From assembly GCA_963699155.1 (NCBI GenBank), contig OY969414.1, forward strand, positions 939,757 to 1,003,756: 64,000 bases of DNA, given 5' to 3'. Numbering within the stretch: position 1 is the first letter of the stretch; the number at the start of each line of letters is the position of its first letter. Under the pieces are notes generated by a model, which was not told the DNA's origin, did not search any database, and saw only the letters and a list, made by a program, of their open reading frames with translations. A program made the position numbers and the translations under genes. This stretch comes from an uncultured Chlamydiales bacterium. GTDB taxonomy: Bacteria; Chlamydiota; Chlamydiia; Chlamydiales; JAAKFR01. Positions 34,131 through 39,614 of this stretch are shown piece by piece.

Positions 34131-35183
34131 TTACCAAGAGAGGTTGCCGGCAGTCTGGTATTCGGTCACCCGGGTTTCGAAGAAGTTTTTCTCTTTAAAG
34201 AGATCGATCGTCTCGCTCATCCAGGGAAAGGGGTTTTTCGAACCGTAGATCGCTTTGAGGCCGATTCGTTCGAGGCGGCGGTCGGCGATGTGCTGGACAT
34301 AGTCGCGGAACATGGGCGCTCTGAGGCCGAGAATGCCGCGGGGGAGACAATCTTTAGCATAGGCGATCTCGAGTTCTACTGCCTGCTCAACAAGTGAGAC
34401 CACTTTACGCTGGAAGTCGGCTGTCCATAACTGGGGATTTTCTTCCTTGATCCCATTGATCAGGTCGATGCCGAAATTGAGGTGGATCGACTCATCGCGG
34501 AGGATATATTGGTACTGCTCACCGATTCCAGTCATCTTATTCTGACGATGGAAGGAGAGGATCATCACAAAGCCGCTGTAGAAGAAGATCCCTTCCATGA
34601 TTAAGTAGTAGCCGACCAGATTTTCGAGGAACTTCTGGGCACCCTCAAAAGAGGCTGTGGAAAAGCCGTCACTCAAGACATCGGCTGTCAGCTTCATTTG
34701 GAACTCATCTTTTTCACGGATGACACGGTTTTCGTTGTACATGTTGAAGATCTCTCCCTCATCCAACCCGAGAGATTCACAGATGTAGAGAAAGGTATGG
34801 GTGTGGACAGCCTCTTCAAAAGCTTGCCGGAGGAGATACTGGCGCGCTTCAGGATTGGTGATGTGTTTGAAGATGGCGAGGACGATATTATTTCCCACCA
34901 GACTTTCTGCGGTGCTGAAGAAGCCGAGATTGCGCAAAATGACCTGTCTCTCATCGTCTGAGAGTGTTTTCGATTTCCAGATTTCGATATCTTTCGCCAT
35001 CGGCACTTCGGTGGGAAGCCAGTTGTTGGCGCATCCATTCAGATAGTGCTCCCAGGCCCATTTATACTTGAGGGGCATCAGCTGGTTGACATCGACCGTG
35101 TTGCAGTTGATCAGCCTTTTAGAGCTAGCATCGACGCGTTTTTCTTTTCCTGAGTGGATCTCTGGTTTTTCTAAAGTAAGCAT
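34131..35183 (-). CDS. nrdB: Ribonucleotide reductase beta subunit, class Ic (Mn/Fe)-type
   Basis: [18 protein letters not shown] (Phe at the radical-Tyr position), [26 protein letters not shown]. Confidence 0.95.
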
Positions 35184-35201: not shown

Positions 35202-38200
35202 TTATTGACAGCTTTCACAGGTTCCATCCAAGTTACACGCAATCGGCTTCTCCTCTCTCTGAACGACGATGCGTGCAGAGGCCGATTCGCTCTTCATCCA
35301 GCGGGGCTGTAGACCCCTCTTATTGATATCTGTGGTCGATTTCTCTATATGGGTTGCCCCTAAAGCGCGCAAGTAGTAGGTTGTCTTTAACCCCTTTTTC
35401 CACGCCATCAGATACATCTGATTGAGCTTCTTCCCACTTGGTTCAGCAAGGTAGAGGTTGAGAGATTGCCCCATATCGATCCATTTCTGGCGTCGTTCTG
35501 CGCATTCGATGATCCAGTCGGGCTCAATTTCGAAGGCGGTCAAAAAGAGATTTTTGATCTCCTCAGGGATCCGTTCGATCTCCATGACTGACCCGTCAAA
35601 GTATTTCAGGTCATCGATCATATCGTGATCCCAGAGCCCTAGCCCTTTCAGCTTATCCACGAGCCAGGGGTTCAAGACAATGAATTCACCGGAAAGGTTC
35701 GATTTGACGAAGAGATGGTTATACATCGGTTCGATCGATTGGGTCACCCCAGTGATATTGGAAATGGTCGCTGTGGGAGCGATCGCCATCGTATTGCAGT
35801 TGCGCATCCCATGTTTTTTGATCGAATCTCTGACGGGAGTCCAATCGAGGCGGTTGCCGGTATGCAGCTCGACATACTCTTGTCCTCTCTCTTGTTTCAG
35901 CAGTTGCAGCGTATCGATCGGGAGAAGGCCACGGTGCCATTTCGAGCCTTTATAGGAGGAATAGGTGCCCCGTTCCTTGGCCAGTTCGCTCGAGGCTTGA
36001 ATGGCGTAGTAGGAGATCAGCTCCATGCTTTCGTCGGCAAATTCAACCGCTTCGTGGCTGGCATAGCTGATACCTAGTTTATAGAGAGCATCTTGGAAGC
36101 CCATAAGTCCCAATCCGATCGCACGGTGGCGCAGGTTGGCCTTTTTCGCCTCTTCGATAGGATAGAAGTTGATGTCGATCACATTGTCGAGCATCCGGAC
36201 AGCGGTGCGGATCGTTGAGGCGAGCAGTTCCCGATCGATTCCCTTCTCATTGATGTGGGCCAGCAAATTAACCGAACCCAGGTTACAGACGGCGGTCTCC
36301 TCAGCAGAGGTATTGAGCAAAATCTCGGTGCAGAGATTGGAGCTATGGACAACCCCTGCATGGTCCTGGGGAGAGCGGATATTCGAGGGATCTTTAAAAG
36401 TTATCCAGGGGTGGCCCGTTTCATAGAGCATGCCGAGCATTTTTCTCCACAAAGAGGCAGCCTCAATCTTTTTGAAAAGCTTGAGTTTTCCCTGCTCCGC
36501 CATCTTTTCATACTCGACATAGCGCTCTTCGAATGCTTTGCCATAAAGATGGTGCAGATCGGGCACATCGTTCGGACTAAAGAGCGTCCACATCCCATTC
36601 TCAACCACCCGCTTCATAAACAGATCGGGGATCCAATTGGCCGTATTCATGTCATGGGTGCGCCGTCTCTCATCTCCCGTATTTTTCCGCAGCTCCAGGA
36701 AATCCTCGATATCCAGATGCCACGTCTCCAAGTAGGCACACATTGCCCCCTTACGTTTACCGCCATTGTGGGCCAAGCCTGCCGTCGTCATATAGGACTC
36801 ATCGCCCTCTACTTTGAGGTCGCAAACGAAGGGTGTGGGAATCAGCGACCTACTTTTTTTGAGTCGGGTGAAGAGATGGTTGCCGCGCACCAGCCAATTG
36901 TATTTAGTGAGCGGCTGGCAACCGACCAATGAGGCGATCTCCTCTACAGCAGGAATGCGGACATCATAGTTCGTCGTTGTGCAATCAAACTGAGTCGTCG
37001 ATCCGTCGGATCGTTTTCCCTCATGTTGATGACGTCGGGTACGGCAATTGCCGGCAGTGGGGATTCCCAAGCGAAGACATTGGTAGCGCACGCCTTCAGC
37101 CAGCTCTCTAGAGGTATTGCAGAAGGTGATCTCCTTGTTTCGGGAAACGTTTCCATCGGTCTCCAAAAGACCTTGTAAGAGTGCCAAAGTCTGTTGACGA
37201 GGGAGATGAGCAAGCCTAGAAGCGATTCTCTTATTCCCTTTGCCATCATAAAGGTCGTCATAGTCAAAGGGAAGCGTATCTGAGCCGCTGCCAATGATAC
37301 GGCCTGTAGTGGCATCTCTGACAGCCCCTCTTCCTGCAGCCCAATGCACCTGTAGATAGTGTTCTCCTCGTCCACTTTCCCAAAAATGGATGCCTCTTTG
37401 GATTAAGTAAGAACGGACAAATTCTAGATGGTTATCTTTTGTGGGATTTCCGGAAATTCCCCACTGCATACCATCTCTAGAGAGATGGCCATCCCCAAGC
37501 AAGATACCGTAGAGGCGCGCCTCTTCGACGCCGATCTCAGCAACAGGCACAACCTCTTTGGGAATGGTCTGAGCAACATAATCTCCTCTCTGAAGTTGCC
37601 CAGCCTCGACCCATTCCCCACGGACTTTCCCCTTGTCTAGCCATTGCATGGTACGCTCTATAGCCTGTTCCATGGGCACCGAGCGGATCGCATAGAAGGG
37701 ATGTCCGGCAGTAACAGAGATCGGATCTATCGCATGTTTGAAGTCCAAAGAGACCATCGCATCGTGCTGATTGTAGAGATAGGTATCCAAAACGGTACGG
37801 TAGGTCCCGCTGGTTCCTAGAACTAAGTCACCAATTTTTACCTCTTGAATGGGTTTGATTCCCTCTGCTGTGTAGATCAATGTTTCTGGCGAAAAACATT
37901 GGTTGACCGCTACGGCGGTGTCGTTGGCAACTTTGAGGAAAGGGATAACGCCTTGGCTCCTGCCGTTGGTCCCTTTGATTTTGGAGCCGGTGGCGCGGAC
38001 GTTGGTCCAGTCGTTGCCGAGGCCGCCAGCCCATTTAGAGAGCTGGGCATCATCGGAAATCACTTTGTAGATATGGTGGAGGTCATCCATGACAGTAGAG
38101 AGATAGCAGGAGCTGAGCTGAGAGTGGGTCGTTCCTGAGTTGAAGAGAGTCGGGGTGGCTGACATGTAGAGGAACTTCGACAGCACATTGTAGAACTCGA

Positions 38201-39563
38201 TAGCTCTTTTCTCTTTCTGTTTTCCTTCATTGAGAGCGAGACCCATTGCGACTCTCATCCAGAGGATCTGGGGTGTTTCGAGGCGGCGATCCTCATGATG
38301 GATGAAATAGCGGTCGTAGAGAGTCTGTAGGCCAAGATAGGTGAATAGATGGTCGCGGCTGAGGTCGATGGCGCTAGCGAGCTTATCGAGGTCGAAGCTG
38401 AGCAAGGTGGGGTCGAGCCTTTCCAGTGAGACGGCTGTTTTGAAATAGTCTTTGAAGTACTGACGGTACAATTTGTTCAGATTGGGATGGTAGGCCTCCA
38501 CGCCGATCGTTTCGCGGTAGAGAGTATCGAGCAAAAGATTGGCTGCCACATAGGTGTAGGCAGGTTCAAACTCCACTTTAGCGCGCGCTGCCATCGTCGT
38601 TGCCAGATCGACCTCATGCTCTTTGATCCCATCATAGAAATTGGCGATGGCCAGCTCGACCAGCTCATCGGATGAGGTCTCTTTATGTCCTTTACAGGCG
38701 TGGGCAATTTTTTTTCTCAGCTCCCTTTTTCCCAATTTGTAGGTGGTGCCATCTTTGCGCACGACTGTGAAGAGGTGATCCTTCTCCTCTCCTTCAAATT
38801 GGAGTTCTGCTTCTGGTGCTAGCTCCTCCTCTTCCTTCTTCTCTTTTCTCTCGGCTCGATAGAGAATGAATTCTTTCGCAACTTCGTAATAGCCCTCTAC
38901 CATCAATGCCTTTTCGATGGCATTTTGGATCATGTCGATGCTGACCGTCTCCCCTTTGGCTGCTGTAGACATGGCAAATTCGACAATTCTGTTCGTCAAA
39001 AGGTTGACCGCTTCGATCACCTCTTGTGAGGTCGGTCCCGTCATCTTCAGGGCGCTGCGGAAGGCGCGTTCGATCGATGCCGCCACTTTGATCGGATTGA
39101 AGCGGACAAAGGAGATGCCGTCACGTCTTAAAATTTTCAGTGCTCGCGGAGAATCGAGGCGGAGCTTTTTATGCTCGTCGCGATAGATGATGTAGTCTCT
39201 CGCCACATCGTGGTGGCCTGTTTCCATCAATTTCACTTCGACGATATCTTGAATCTCCTCGACATTGAGAAGAATACCCTTCGATGCCGCTTTGATCGCC
39301 TCATCAACCACAAGGTCGGTGATCTCATCGATGATCTCTCGCATCTGTTCTAGCAATGGACGCGGCTCTTCAATTTTTTTGGTATCGCGGAAGGCTGCTT
39401 CCAACGCATTAAAGATCCGTTCGCGACGGAAAGGGACCAACATCCCATTCCGTTTCACAATGGTATATCCAGAAATTGTATCTTGTGACATCTCTTCACC
39501 CATCGAATGCTGCTCCTCTTCCAGAACGAGAGTAGCTGTTGCCTGATCAAAATCTTTCCTCAT
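35202..39563 (-). CDS. nrdA: Ribonucleotide reductase alpha subunit with three ATP cones and an intein
   Basis: QLSSCYL, SSNLCTEI, AVCNLGS, TTYYLR, C-terminal CESCQ; start at 39563 (ATG) or 39587. Confidence 0.95.
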   Translation of the reverse strand: MRKDFDQATATLVLEEEQHSMGEEMSQDTISGYTIVKRNGMLVPFRRERIFNALEAAFRDTKKIEEPRPLLEQMREIIDEITDLVVDEAIKAASKGILLNVEEIQDIVEVKLMETGHHDVARDYIIYRDEHKKLRLDSPRALKILRRDGISFVRFNPIKVAASIERAFRSALKMTGPTSQEVIEAVNLLTNRIVEFAMSTAAKGETVSIDMIQNAIEKALMVEGYYEVAKEFILYRAERKEKKEEEELAPEAELQFEGEEKDHLFTVVRKDGTTYKLGKRELRKKIAHACKGHKETSSDELVELAIANFYDGIKEHEVDLATTMAARAKVEFEPAYTYVAANLLLDTLYRETIGVEAYHPNLNKLYRQYFKDYFKTAVSLERLDPTLLSFDLDKLASAIDLSRDHLFTYLGLQTLYDRYFIHHEDRRLETPQILWMRVAMGLALNEGKQKEKRAIEFYNVLSKFLYMSATPTLFNSGTTHSQLSSCYLSTVMDDLHHIYKVISDDAQLSKWAGGLGNDWTNVRATGSKIKGTNGRSQGVIPFLKVANDTAVAVNQCFSPETLIYTAEGIKPIQEVKIGDLVLGTSGTYRTVLDTYLYNQHDAMVSLDFKHAIDPISVTAGHPFYAIRSVPMEQAIERTMQWLDKGKVRGEWVEAGQLQRGDYVAQTIPKEVVPVAEIGVEEARLYGILLGDGHLSRDGMQWGISGNPTKDNHLEFVRSYLIQRGIHFWESGRGEHYLQVHWAAGRGAVRDATTGRIIGSGSDTLPFDYDDLYDGKGNKRIASRLAHLPRQQTLALLQGLLETDGNVSRNKEITFCNTSRELAEGVRYQCLRLGIPTAGNCRTRRHQHEGKRSDGSTTQFDCTTTNYDVRIPAVEEIASLVGCQPLTKYNWLVRGNHLFTRLKKSRSLIPTPFVCDLKVEGDESYMTTAGLAHNGGKRKGAMCAYLETWHLDIEDFLELRKNTGDERRRTHDMNTANWIPDLFMKRVVENGMWTLFSPNDVPDLHHLYGKAFEERYVEYEKMAEQGKLKLFKKIEAASLWRKMLGMLYETGHPWITFKDPSNIRSPQDHAGVVHSSNLCTEILLNTSAEETAVCNLGSVNLLAHINEKGIDRELLASTIRTAVRMLDNVIDINFYPIEEAKKANLRHRAIGLGLMGFQDALYKLGISYASHEAVEFADESMELISYYAIQASSELAKERGTYSSYKGSKWHRGLLPIDTLQLLKQERGQEYVELHTGNRLDWTPVRDSIKKHGMRNCNTMAIAPTATISNITGVTQSIEPMYNHLFVKSNLSGEFIVLNPWLVDKLKGLGLWDHDMIDDLKYFDGSVMEIERIPEEIKNLFLTAFEIEPDWIIECAERRQKWIDMGQSLNLYLAEPSGKKLNQMYLMAWKKGLKTTYYLRALGATHIEKSTTDINKRGLQPRWMKSESASARIVVQREEKPIACNLDGTCESCQ
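36765..37898 (-). mobile_element. Intein with LAGLIDADG homing endonuclease (378 aa) in NrdA; +1 residue is Gly
   Basis: Starts CFSPETLI, block B SVTAGHPF, LAGLIDADG motifs LYGILLGDG and LLQGLLETDG, ends LAHN; removing it restores AVAVNQGGKRKGA. Confidence 0.93.
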
Positions 39564-39614
39564 AATGACCTCAAAATTCGCTTGCAAAAAATAGCATCAA
39601 TTTGCTGCGAGAAA

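Follow-up and report, generated by a model that had tools for sequence, protein, structure and literature searches.

The nrdA gene of the window, by which we mean the whole 64,000-nucleotide stretch of DNA analysed here, is split by a genuine intein of full length, in which a LAGLIDADG endonuclease is nested within a HINT splicing domain, and the C-extein begins with glycine. The first-pass annotation had excluded the canonical class 1 route, and this exclusion stands because the available text of a review gives Cys, Ser, or Thr at +1 as the requirement for the branched intermediate (PMC4031507), whereas the codon at +1 is GGC. From the comparisons below, this NrdA probably has a putative non-canonical way of maturing. 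We give an even chance to one such way, in which a class-1-like homing intein would mature without a side-chain nucleophile: a thioester would form at Cys1, the terminal Asn would cyclise, and the freed Gly amine would attack the thioester. The features are listed in Table 1.

Table 1. Positions of nrdA, its intein, and nrdB in the window.
Feature	Coordinates	Strand	Description and evidence
nrdA precursor ORF	35202..39587	(-)	class I RNR alpha subunit with N-terminal ATP-cone; unbroken
N-extein	37899..39587	(-)	residues 1-563, ends ...AVAVNQ; aligns with 5im3_A up to residue 442
Intein	36765..37898	(-)	378 aa, HINT splicing domain and nested LAGLIDADG endonuclease; exact in-frame insert, Pfam, AF2, Foldseek
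Cys1 codon TGT	37896..37898	(-)	N-terminal splicing nucleophile; Cys in 184/186 site-mates, Ser in 2
Block B T63-A-G-H66, then Pro67	37701..37712	(-)	H66 in 54/54 and T63 in 46/54 Gly+1 rows
LAGLIDADG motif 1, LYGILLGDGHL	37482..37514	(-)	intein residues 129-139; Asp136 in 174/186
LAGLIDADG motif 2, LQGLLETDGNV	37146..37178	(-)	intein residues 241-251; Asp248 in 169/186
Block F Asp360, within FVCDLKVEG	36819..36821	(-)	Asp in 54/54 Gly+1 and 17/17 Ser+1 rows
Block G His377-Asn378, CAC AAT	36765..36770	(-)	C-terminal splice junction; HN in 186/187 junction-resolved site-mates
Gly+1 codon GGC	36762..36764	(-)	C-extein residue 1, first Gly of loop-2 QGGKR; sequence and homologues
C-extein	35202..36764	(-)	GGKRKGAMCAYLE... 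through stop codon; translation and 5im3_A alignment
nrdB	34131..35183	(-)	350 aa, partner beta subunit, directly downstream of nrdA; 1syy_A match, E 4.8e-192

The insert comprises 1134 nt, or 378 codons, in frame. Read base by base, the codons are GTC AAC CAA/TGT at the N junction and CAC AAT/GGC GGT AAA CGT at the C junction (Asn at 36767-36765; slashes mark the junctions), and the junction peptides are AVAVNQ/CFSPET and GLAHN/GGKRKGAMC. This reading agreed with the first-pass annotation in the junctions, Cys1, the TxxH motif, the block F Asp, the terminal His-Asn, both LAGLIDADG motifs, and the unbroken ORF. The insertion is precise: in the solved structure of NrdA, 5im3_A, ...AVAVNQ (residue 442) continues uninterrupted into GGKRKGAVCAYLE, and a genome of the same genus (G147) has an empty site, ...AVAVNQGGKRKGAMC, reading NQ/GG with 20/20 identical residues in each flank. 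The intein is positioned between CAA (Gln) and GGC (Gly) in loop 2, the element of RNR through which the active site receives the specificity signal. This placement, also claimed earlier, was recovered in an alignment of query residues 934-1300 with E. coli R1 residues 287-650, in which the residue preceding Gly+1 would correspond to roughly Q294 if no gap intervenes. In the 120 nearest NrdA proteins, all intein-free sites read NQGG (95/95), and all intein-bearing sites read GG (25/25).

The nrdA precursor has 1461 aa when counted from TTG, and the database form (P0003) has 1453 aa from the ATG at 39563. Pfam matched Ribonuc_red_lgC in two stretches (E 4.2e-188), together with ATP-cone and Ribonuc_red_lgN. 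NCBIfam NF009029 gave 1645.9 bits (cut-off 1350), a full-length NrdA match with the insert skipped, and 5im3_A also aligned in two stretches (E 0). Compared with orthologues that lack the intein, the exteins show 83-93% identity. Other RNRs were looked for in the complete, single-contig 2.4-Mb genome, and no second RNR catalytic gene was found there: it holds one PF02867 gene, which is nrdA, and zero PF13597 genes. The same two counts were obtained in five of five further intein-bearing genomes of the phylum. Since nrdA is the sole RNR catalytic gene of a complete genome, the intein-bearing nrdA has to work. Chlamydiae import nucleotides, and that RNR is strictly essential to this organism is an assumption of the present analysis. 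Within the window, no conserved neighbours of nrdA other than nrdB were seen.

On the intein itself, Pfam LAGLIDADG_3 (PF14528) scored 37.0 bits (cut-off 22.5), and the insert has the two motifs with acidic residues and the predicted endonuclease fold of LAGLIDADG homing endonucleases. The Pfam Hint models fell below their cut-offs (Hint_2, 25.4 vs 28.4), as did PT-HINT (23.5 bits, cut-off 27.7), and the NCBIfam search of the precursor listed no intein splice-region model. That standard intein models miss this element may explain why surveys have not flagged the family. The AF2 model of the intein (pLDDT 92.9, pTM 0.91) had its best Foldseek matches in PI-SceI (E 1.5e-18), TliVMA (TMq 0.64), PI-PfuI, and PhoVMA, with E values of 1e-14 to 1e-18 for the first three, and it also matched I-DmoI. 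Together with the exact insertion and the empty site in the same genus, this predicted PI-SceI-type fold upholds the earlier claim of an intein in NrdA. In the model, the two-domain fold is common to the window intein, PI-SceI (Sce VMA1), TliVMA/PhoVMA, and the archaeal RNR intein PI-PfuI (1dq3), at 12-16% sequence identity in the fold alignments; the full-length predicted matches are thus class 1 endonuclease inteins, not BIL domains. Blocks A, B, F, and G (Cys1, TxxH, Asp, His-Asn) and in-frame insertion at a conserved site are shared with class 1 endonuclease inteins, but these have Cys, Ser, or Thr at +1 according to the accessible part of PMC4031507.

The Gly at +1 had been noted from the window alone, and it is conserved at this site. 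The 120 closest intein homologues all read HN/GG, and 79 of the 80 species-representative loci read NQC...HN/GGKR without a stop codon. At those 79 loci, Gly+1 is encoded by GGC (48), GGT (17), GGA (9), or GGG (5). In a diverse set of 186 junction-resolved site-mates, obtained from 187 by leaving out P0205 (which ends in TN), the +1 residue is Gly in 169 and Ser in 17. At the level of these alignments, the pattern shows that Gly+1 is kept by purifying selection and is not accidental. Additionally, a soil-metagenome contig (X2, record 8, 246 nt; Logan assembly) spans HN/GG with 0 differences, a kind of support that consists of assembled contigs from four soil-metagenome runs of one study and is weak for the GGC codon; these contigs cover parts of the window, and the runs listed included no RNA.

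Across the phylum, 40 of 300 genomes and 25 of 165 genera carry the intein, which is missing from the same-genus genome with the empty site. Intein and C-extein similarities disagree among homologues (77%/77% for P0004, 75%/91% for P0005), and the intein is probably still mobile, as judged from these patterns. By record title, the family occurs in at least four bacterial phyla (Chlamydiota, Verrucomicrobiota, Pseudomonadota, and a Thermomicrobiales MAG), and also in glutaredoxin-fused RNRs, one of them named as viral-metagenome derived. Cultured carriers include Thiothrix lacustris DSM 21227, Thiofilum flexile DSM 14609, Thiolinea disciformis DSM 14473, and Halomonas cerina CECT 7282. As aligned, a large family holds this one site across many RNR lineages, and its C-extein nearly always starts with Gly. 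One further genome, G132, was considered as a natural knockout and set aside as uninformative; there, the exteins of nrdA are also broken up, apparently through assembly indels or decay of the gene.

The autoprocessing residues are nearly invariant in 54 diverse Gly+1 rows, with Cys1 in 52 (Ser in 2) and His66, Asp360, His377, and Asn378 in all 54. The first-pass annotation had offered help from another Cys as one option, and this option is weakened. Cys359, which adjoins the block F Asp360, occurs in 5/54 diverse Gly+1 inteins (Tyr is commonest there, with 29), and the extein Cys at +9 in 14/49 rows. Any Cys within +1..+12 was found in 16/49 rows, and Ser, Thr, or Cys within +1..+6 was absent in 46/49 and present in 3/49. 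Because neither Cys is conserved, both were rejected as helpers for the whole family, and the aligned rows show that a conserved substitute nucleophile is absent from the intein and the nearby extein.

Assignment to class 3 was also rejected. Class 3 inteins lack Cys1 or Ser1 and have a WCT motif whose nucleophilic Cys is at block F position 4, and the window copy likewise has a block F Cys; however, this Cys is non-conserved and stands one position before an Asp that occupies the block F position in every diverse row, and Cys1 is present. Class 3 inteins, moreover, still require a +1 nucleophile, as stated in the available text of PMC4031507. With type A BIL domains (e.g., 2lwy_A) the window intein shares Cys1, a C-terminal His-Asn, and a C-flank without a +1 nucleophile. 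The only PDB sequence match of the intein was 2lwy_A itself, a weak one (E 0.0056, residues 2-70, T..HPFY at block B).

The Ser+1 inteins at the same site (P0176 and 16 other representatives) are homologous, with 26-33% identity, an identical [ND]Q/ site, and the same blocks; they differ in the canonical Ser+1 and in their hosts, which are glutaredoxin-fused RNRs. No special adaptation was marked in the Gly+1 intein sequences, and the sole candidate was Pro67 after the block B His, present in 47/54 Gly+1 rows vs 0/17 Ser+1 rows. It was rejected as a Gly+1 signature: it is missing from seven of the Gly+1 rows, the division between Gly and Ser represents one or two evolutionary changes only, and the association has no statistical weight. 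In the intein tree, the split needs 2 changes, and a single split was not rejected (p-AU 0.20); the tree is unrooted, with a midpoint root only, and gives no direction of ancestry between Gly+1 and Ser+1.

The maturation route that we favour would have three steps. In the first, an N-S acyl shift at Gln(-1)-Cys1 would form a thioester, with the block B Thr and His assisting. In the second, Asn378 would cyclise with help from His377 and Asp360, and the C-extein would be freed with an N-terminal Gly; since the +1 residue has no side chain, no branched intermediate would be possible. In the third, the unhindered alpha-amine of Gly would attack the thioester and give a native Gln-Gly peptide bond; the intein active site, together with RNR barrel halves that have already come together, would keep this amine near the thioester. 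The products would be mature NrdA (...AVAVNQGGKRKG...) and the free intein. The same route has been proposed for type A BILs, which end in His-Asn and lack a +1 nucleophile, and in which the amine freed by Asn cyclisation attacks the N-terminal thioester (PMC4031507, in its accessible part); here it would operate in a true homing intein of an essential enzyme.

The ligation step is purely one that we infer, and self-excision at both ends without ligation would account just as well for the conservation of Cys1, His66, Asp360, and His-Asn. Amine-mediated ligation may be inefficient, since cleaved products outweigh the spliced product in type A BILs according to the same portion of PMC4031507. 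No experiments on any family member were found in the literature. Slightly short of an even chance, in our estimate, is the broader proposal that a large and old homing-intein lineage splices efficiently without a +1 side-chain nucleophile, templated by the pre-folded RNR barrel, and would be in effect a fourth mechanistic class.

The main rival is a two-chain enzyme, in which the intein would excise at both junctions, by hydrolysis or thiolysis of the thioester at the N junction and Asn cyclisation at the C junction, and the exteins would stay unjoined but associated as a nicked alpha subunit. We consider it unlikely, although it is the only alternative with appreciable weight. The residues for both cleavages are all conserved; without a +1 nucleophile, mainly cleaved products are described in the available parts of two reviews (PMC4031507, PMC7664689), and the RNR of phage Aeh1 works from two NrdA chains, as reported in the accessible text of PMC3045599 and PMC2677866. 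Against this, the related clade at the same site keeps Ser+1, so ligation would be the ancestral or a parallel outcome there. The nick would also fall inside loop 2, through which the specificity signal reaches the active site and whose Gln and Gly are invariant in the empty sites of the clade. Furthermore, in the glutaredoxin-fused RNR clade, occupied sites have only Gly or Ser at +1 (33/33), whereas the first loop residue of empty sites is G in 42, S in 19, A in 11, and E in 1 (n=73), with Ala or Glu thus at 12/73. The restriction of +1 to Gly or Ser hints at a chemical requirement; homing co-conversion could explain it too.

The remaining alternatives are far less probable than the two-chain enzyme. 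Canonical-like splicing through another nucleophile (the block F Cys, the +9 Cys, or another Ser, Thr, or Cys) followed by rearrangement to the native bond is very improbable. The window copy does have both Cys359 and a Cys at +9, but the counts given above speak against their use, and use of the +9 residue would remove GGKRKGAM, which is invariant in the clade. We hold equally improbable that a trans-acting host factor (a thiol, a peptidase or ligase, or a chaperone) is needed for ligation or cleavage, an idea that arises only from the blocked canonical chemistry: the spread over at least four phyla and glutaredoxin-fused RNRs makes a shared dedicated helper unlikely, and nrdB was the only conserved neighbour seen in the window. 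Marginally less credible still is a retained intein, with either an active precursor from whose loop 2 the 378-residue domain protrudes or a gene that is a dead relic. The close termini of inteins make a looped-out insertion topologically possible, but no observation of this analysis favours it. A passive insert would not keep its five autoprocessing residues between rows that share only 25-30% identity, no stop codon breaks the ORF in the window or in 79/80 loci, and nrdA is the sole RNR gene, with exteins close to those of intein-free orthologues. That the GGC codon or the junctions are artefacts of sequencing, assembly, or annotation has a negligible chance, since the hundreds of independent assemblies with Gly+1, in four synonymous codons, make a sequencing error untenable and an independent contig spans the junction unchanged.

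No discussion of a Gly+1 RNR intein or of this junction was found in the literature. InBase reportedly listed an A. vinelandii RIR1 element as 'BIL', and work by Amitai from 2003 is said to describe BILs as lacking a homing endonuclease and residing in the variable parts of proteins that are non-essential and often secreted. Unlike BILs as so described, the window intein has a LAGLIDADG domain, an invariant site in the sole RNR, and a sporadic distribution of the homing type. The first-pass annotation had described such inteins as catalogued before, which fits: an Azotobacter nrdA intein is in print (A. chroococcum NCIMB 8003, aa 442-800; likewise A. vinelandii DJ, Avin_33290; PMC4465626), but the accessible text of that paper is silent on the +1 residue and on splicing. 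The Azotobacter intein has the host protein and the LAGLIDADG_3 endonuclease type in common with ours, and, going by the available published description, its insertion point is apparently the same, aa 442 being the loop-2 Gln of the 963-aa NrdA 5im3_A. The accessible portions of PMC4760082, PMC5784728, PMC3653736, PMC517821, and bioRxiv 10.1101/2025.01.02.630785 contain nothing on +1 at this site.

In hundreds of species, an essential enzyme depends on an intein without the +1 residue that is held to be required in the available text of PMC4031507. If ligation does take place, nucleophile-free protein splicing would be a working natural mechanism, beyond a side reaction of BILs, and the textbook requirement for Cys, Ser, or Thr at +1 would not be general. 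The intein would then also provide protein engineers with a natural scarless ligation module whose footprint is Gly only. If ligation is absent, class I RNR would tolerate a nick in its specificity loop, which would bear on the allosteric relay through loop 2.

The first-pass annotation had described an intein in nrdA that is followed by Gly, and a base-level reading of the locus bore this out, with an AAT/GGC junction in an open ORF. Every motif it had named (Cys1, block B, block F, the final His-Asn, and two LAGLIDADG motifs) was present in the translation. The insert comprises 1134 nt, or 378 codons, and its G+C content of 0.49-0.54 is the same as that of the flanks. A TTG start gives the 1461-aa product, and the database form of the protein (P0003, 1453 aa) fits an ATG 8 codons downstream (39563-39587, minus strand). 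The intein is overlapped by ORFs of 225 aa (36255-36932, plus strand) and 143 aa (36944-37375, minus strand), which use the other strand or a different frame; no sign of their being genes was seen, and with an intact LAGLIDADG domain in frame there is no need for an antisense endonuclease.

Features of the nrdA-nrdB locus, in window positions unless intein numbering is indicated
Feature	Position	Strand	Description
nrdA ORF	35202..39587	-	unbroken, translates to 1461 aa
Upstream junction, GTC AAC CAA / TGT	Cys1 = 37898-37896	-	base-by-base reading
Downstream junction, CAC AAT / GGC GGT AAA CGT	Asn = 36767-36765, Gly+1 = 36764-36762	-	base-by-base reading
Intein motifs	Cys1; T63-A-G-H66; FVCD360LKVEG; H377-N378 (intein numbering)	-	translation
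Two LAGLIDADG motifs	intein	-	LYGILLGDGHL and LQGLLETDGNV, translation
nrdB	34131-35183	-	directly after nrdA; matches 1syy_A, E 4.8e-192

Pfam analysis of the window NrdA recovered ATP-cones, an all-alpha domain, and the RNR barrel domain split in two stretches (E 4.2e-188). Within the intein, LAGLIDADG_3 exceeded its cut-off, and Hint-type models matched only below theirs. The 1046-position NCBIfam NrdA model NF009029 scored 1645.9 bits (cut-off 1350), and no intein splice-region model was found among the NCBIfam matches at E <= 0.01. In the alignment with the best solved chain, 5im3_A (963 aa), which we take to be Pseudomonas aeruginosa NrdA, ...VNDTAVAVNQ was aligned to its residue 442, followed by GGKRKGAVCAYLE; therefore, the host is contiguous NQ/GG, with nothing missing or duplicated. 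Residues 934-1300 of the window NrdA aligned to residues 287-650 of E. coli R1, and this range approximately places Gln at 294 and Gly+1 at 295, presumably in loop 2. Additionally, another genome of the same genus (G147) has an empty site with identical flanking residues (20/20 on each side) and flanking DNA identities to the window of 47/60 and 52/60 bases. In soil-metagenome run X3, contig record 11 aligns to the C-extein over window 36685-36758 (74 bases, 11 differences) and, read by hand past the junction, gives ...DTAVAVNQGG, an empty site in a relative; the study that yielded this intein-free allele also yielded contigs identical to the window.

The intein and 10 flanking residues on each side were modeled with AlphaFold2 from a 65-row alignment (pLDDT 92.9, pTM 0.91). 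Foldseek against the PDB ranked PI-SceI first (1ef0_A, E 1.5e-18), followed by TliVMA (7qsu, TMq 0.64), PI-PfuI (1dq3), and PhoVMA (7qst); free-standing LAGLIDADG enzymes, I-DmoI among them, ranked below the intein structures. The sole PDB match by sequence, a weak one (E 0.0056, residues 2-70), was 2lwy_A, a solved BIL (bacterial intein-like) domain, which has T..HPFY at block B in common with the window intein.

Conservation of Gly+1 among inteins at this site, a check proposed in the first pass, was confirmed. With query residues 545-960, all 120 proteins among the matches listed carry the intein (65-100% identity), and all 120 read HN/GG (GGKRKG in 119, GGKRLG in 1). When the 120 nearest NrdA were ranked by C-extein, 95 had empty sites (NQGGKRKGA 94, NQGGRRKGA 1), and the 25 occupied sites all read HN/GGKRKGA. 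Across the phylum, the intein was present in 40 of 300 scored genomes and 25 of 165 genera, one further genome being left out of the scoring. Species-representative genomes scanned with two peptide patterns yielded 346 stretches encoding a relative of the intein. Among the best 80 of these 346, 79 read NQC...HN/GGKR in one open frame, and locus L032 had no junction within a single frame. The 79 loci use four Gly codons at +1 (GGC 48, GGT 17, GGA 9, GGG 5); therefore, the amino acid is conserved, not the DNA. By record title, the hosts include Chlamydiota, Verrucomicrobiota, Gamma- and Betaproteobacteria, and a Thermomicrobiales MAG, with Thiothrix, Thiofilum, Thiolinea, and Halomonas strains as cultured hosts.

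An exhaustive search with the intein alone against 50%-identity representatives gave 1945 matches at E <= 1e-3, of which 85 reached E <= 1e-30, and junctions were mapped on 150 representatives among the matches listed plus the earlier protein set. Both junctions were resolved at the [NDQ]Q site in 186 proteins, rows without either junction being uncounted. The +1 residue was Gly in 169 and Ser in 17, and the first intein residue was Cys in 184 and Ser in 2. Among the loops of the Gly+1 hosts are GGKRKG, GGGKRKG, GGNKRPG, and GGVRKG, so that the set spans several lineages of RNR. Among three odd site-mates (P0175, P0188, and P0205), two inteins start with Ser, not Cys; the P0175 intein is followed by GSKRKG, and that of P0205 ends in Thr-Asn rather than His-Asn and was dropped from the 186.

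Rows with Ser+1 fall into two groups (15 and 2 rows; SH-aLRT 99 and 98) in an unrooted 71-row maximum-likelihood tree, which needs two Gly/Ser changes, a single split not being rejected (p-AU 0.20). Their hosts are glutaredoxin-fused RNRs, one named as viral-metagenome. Host alleles were compared among the 120 proteins nearest by C-extein to P0176, a Ser+1 example (P0176 and P0273-P0391), 14 of them unresolved by pattern. The 73 empty sites have G (42), S (19), A (11), or E (1) as first loop residue, and the 33 occupied sites comprise 30 Ser+1 and 3 Gly+1. At 94-98% identity, the closest empty alleles carry NQGGGKRNGS or NQSGKRNGS, and the occupied allele carries NQ/intein/SGKRNGS; thus, the intein uses Ser in hosts that tolerate it. 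Those empty sites that bear Ser and are one residue shorter look like precise intein-loss footprints or co-converted recipients. In the NrdA clade of the window, Gly is invariant and the intein lives with it. Pro67 (window 37698-37700, minus strand), after the block B His, was found in 47 of 54 Gly+1 versus 0 of 17 Ser+1 inteins (P0123-P0272), which is only a lead, as seven Gly+1 rows lack it and the contrast represents one or two evolutionary changes; 2lwy_A has Pro here, as do most Gly+1 inteins.

A single contig of 2,399,326 bp makes up the window genome, whose completeness is rated at 100%. The search for other RNRs, also proposed earlier, returned one PF02867 locus, the intein-bearing nrdA, and no PF13597 (NrdD) match in this complete genome; in each of five other genomes of the phylum that carry the intein, there is likewise a single PF02867 locus and PF13597 is absent. 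The window nrdA, judged by this gene content, has to work. In two chlamydial genomes of one or a few contigs (G132:C1:1149201-1151948 and G259:C1:131936-134615), the intein-bearing nrdA, the only RNR locus found, is broken over several frames with stops in the intein and exteins, which may be assembly indels or real decay. The nrdB product has a 17-residue stretch in common with 1syy_A, presumably the class Ic R2 of Chlamydia trachomatis, in which Phe replaces the radical Tyr; if this identity holds, the window RNR would be class Ic.

According to PMC4031507, the +1 nucleophile is Cys, Ser, or Thr, and BILs, which lack it, cannot make the branched intermediate; for type A BILs, the proposal is that a thioester forms N-terminally, Asn cyclises C-terminally, and the amine thereby freed attacks the thioester, with cleavage products dominating (PMC7664689 agrees). 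By analogy, a thioester would form at the N terminus of the window intein, Asn would cyclise at its C terminus, freeing the amine of Gly+1, and this amine would attack the thioester, regenerating a native Gln-Gly bond. Gly, the least hindered amine, should favour ligation over hydrolysis, as should the two RNR barrel halves, which can hold the ends together. The type A route would need exactly the residues conserved in Gly+1 inteins: in 54 diverse rows, Cys1 was kept in 52 (Ser in 2), Thr63 in 46, and His66, Asp360, Tyr369, His377, and Asn378 in all 54. The suggested non-canonical maturation is supported, and ligation by the amine route has, in our estimate, about an even chance. The main rival, a nicked two-chain enzyme with unjoined exteins, calls for the same conserved residues, and phage Aeh1, with its split NrdA, offers a precedent (PMC3045599 and PMC2677866); we regard this rival as possible but rather unlikely. 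Help from another Cys, the remaining earlier option, is disfavoured, as the block F Cys of the window copy occurs in 5 of 54 Gly+1 rows (Tyr in 29) and, in the 49 rows with at least 12 residues past the junction, Cys lies at +9 in 14, any Cys within +1..+12 in 16, and any Ser/Thr/Cys within +1..+6 in 3, so that no side chain can serve the whole family.

The intein fits a homing element that is active or was so until recently, because of its sporadic distribution, the same-genus empty site, the kept LAGLIDADG aspartates (first in 174/186 and second in 169/186 site-mates), and mismatched intein and extein similarities. Intein and C-extein similarities were 77% and 77% for P0004, 75% and 91% for P0005, and 66% and 65% for Thiothrix nivea P0090. 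Three long NrdA hosts with extra Hint-type Pfam matches, P0086 (2297 aa), P0067 (1702 aa), and P0100 (1700 aa), may accommodate an additional intein, or two, at sites elsewhere in the protein.

InBase reportedly listed an A. vinelandii RIR1 'BIL', and our literature search turned up no publication about an RNR intein with Gly at +1. The A. chroococcum nrdA intein (aa 442-800, LAGLIDADG-3 type, conserved in A. vinelandii DJ) carries no remark on the +1 residue in the available text of PMC4465626. Judged from its sequence, the window element is a genuine homing intein whose junction is of the BIL type, and it adds one more member to a large family that has been insufficiently described.
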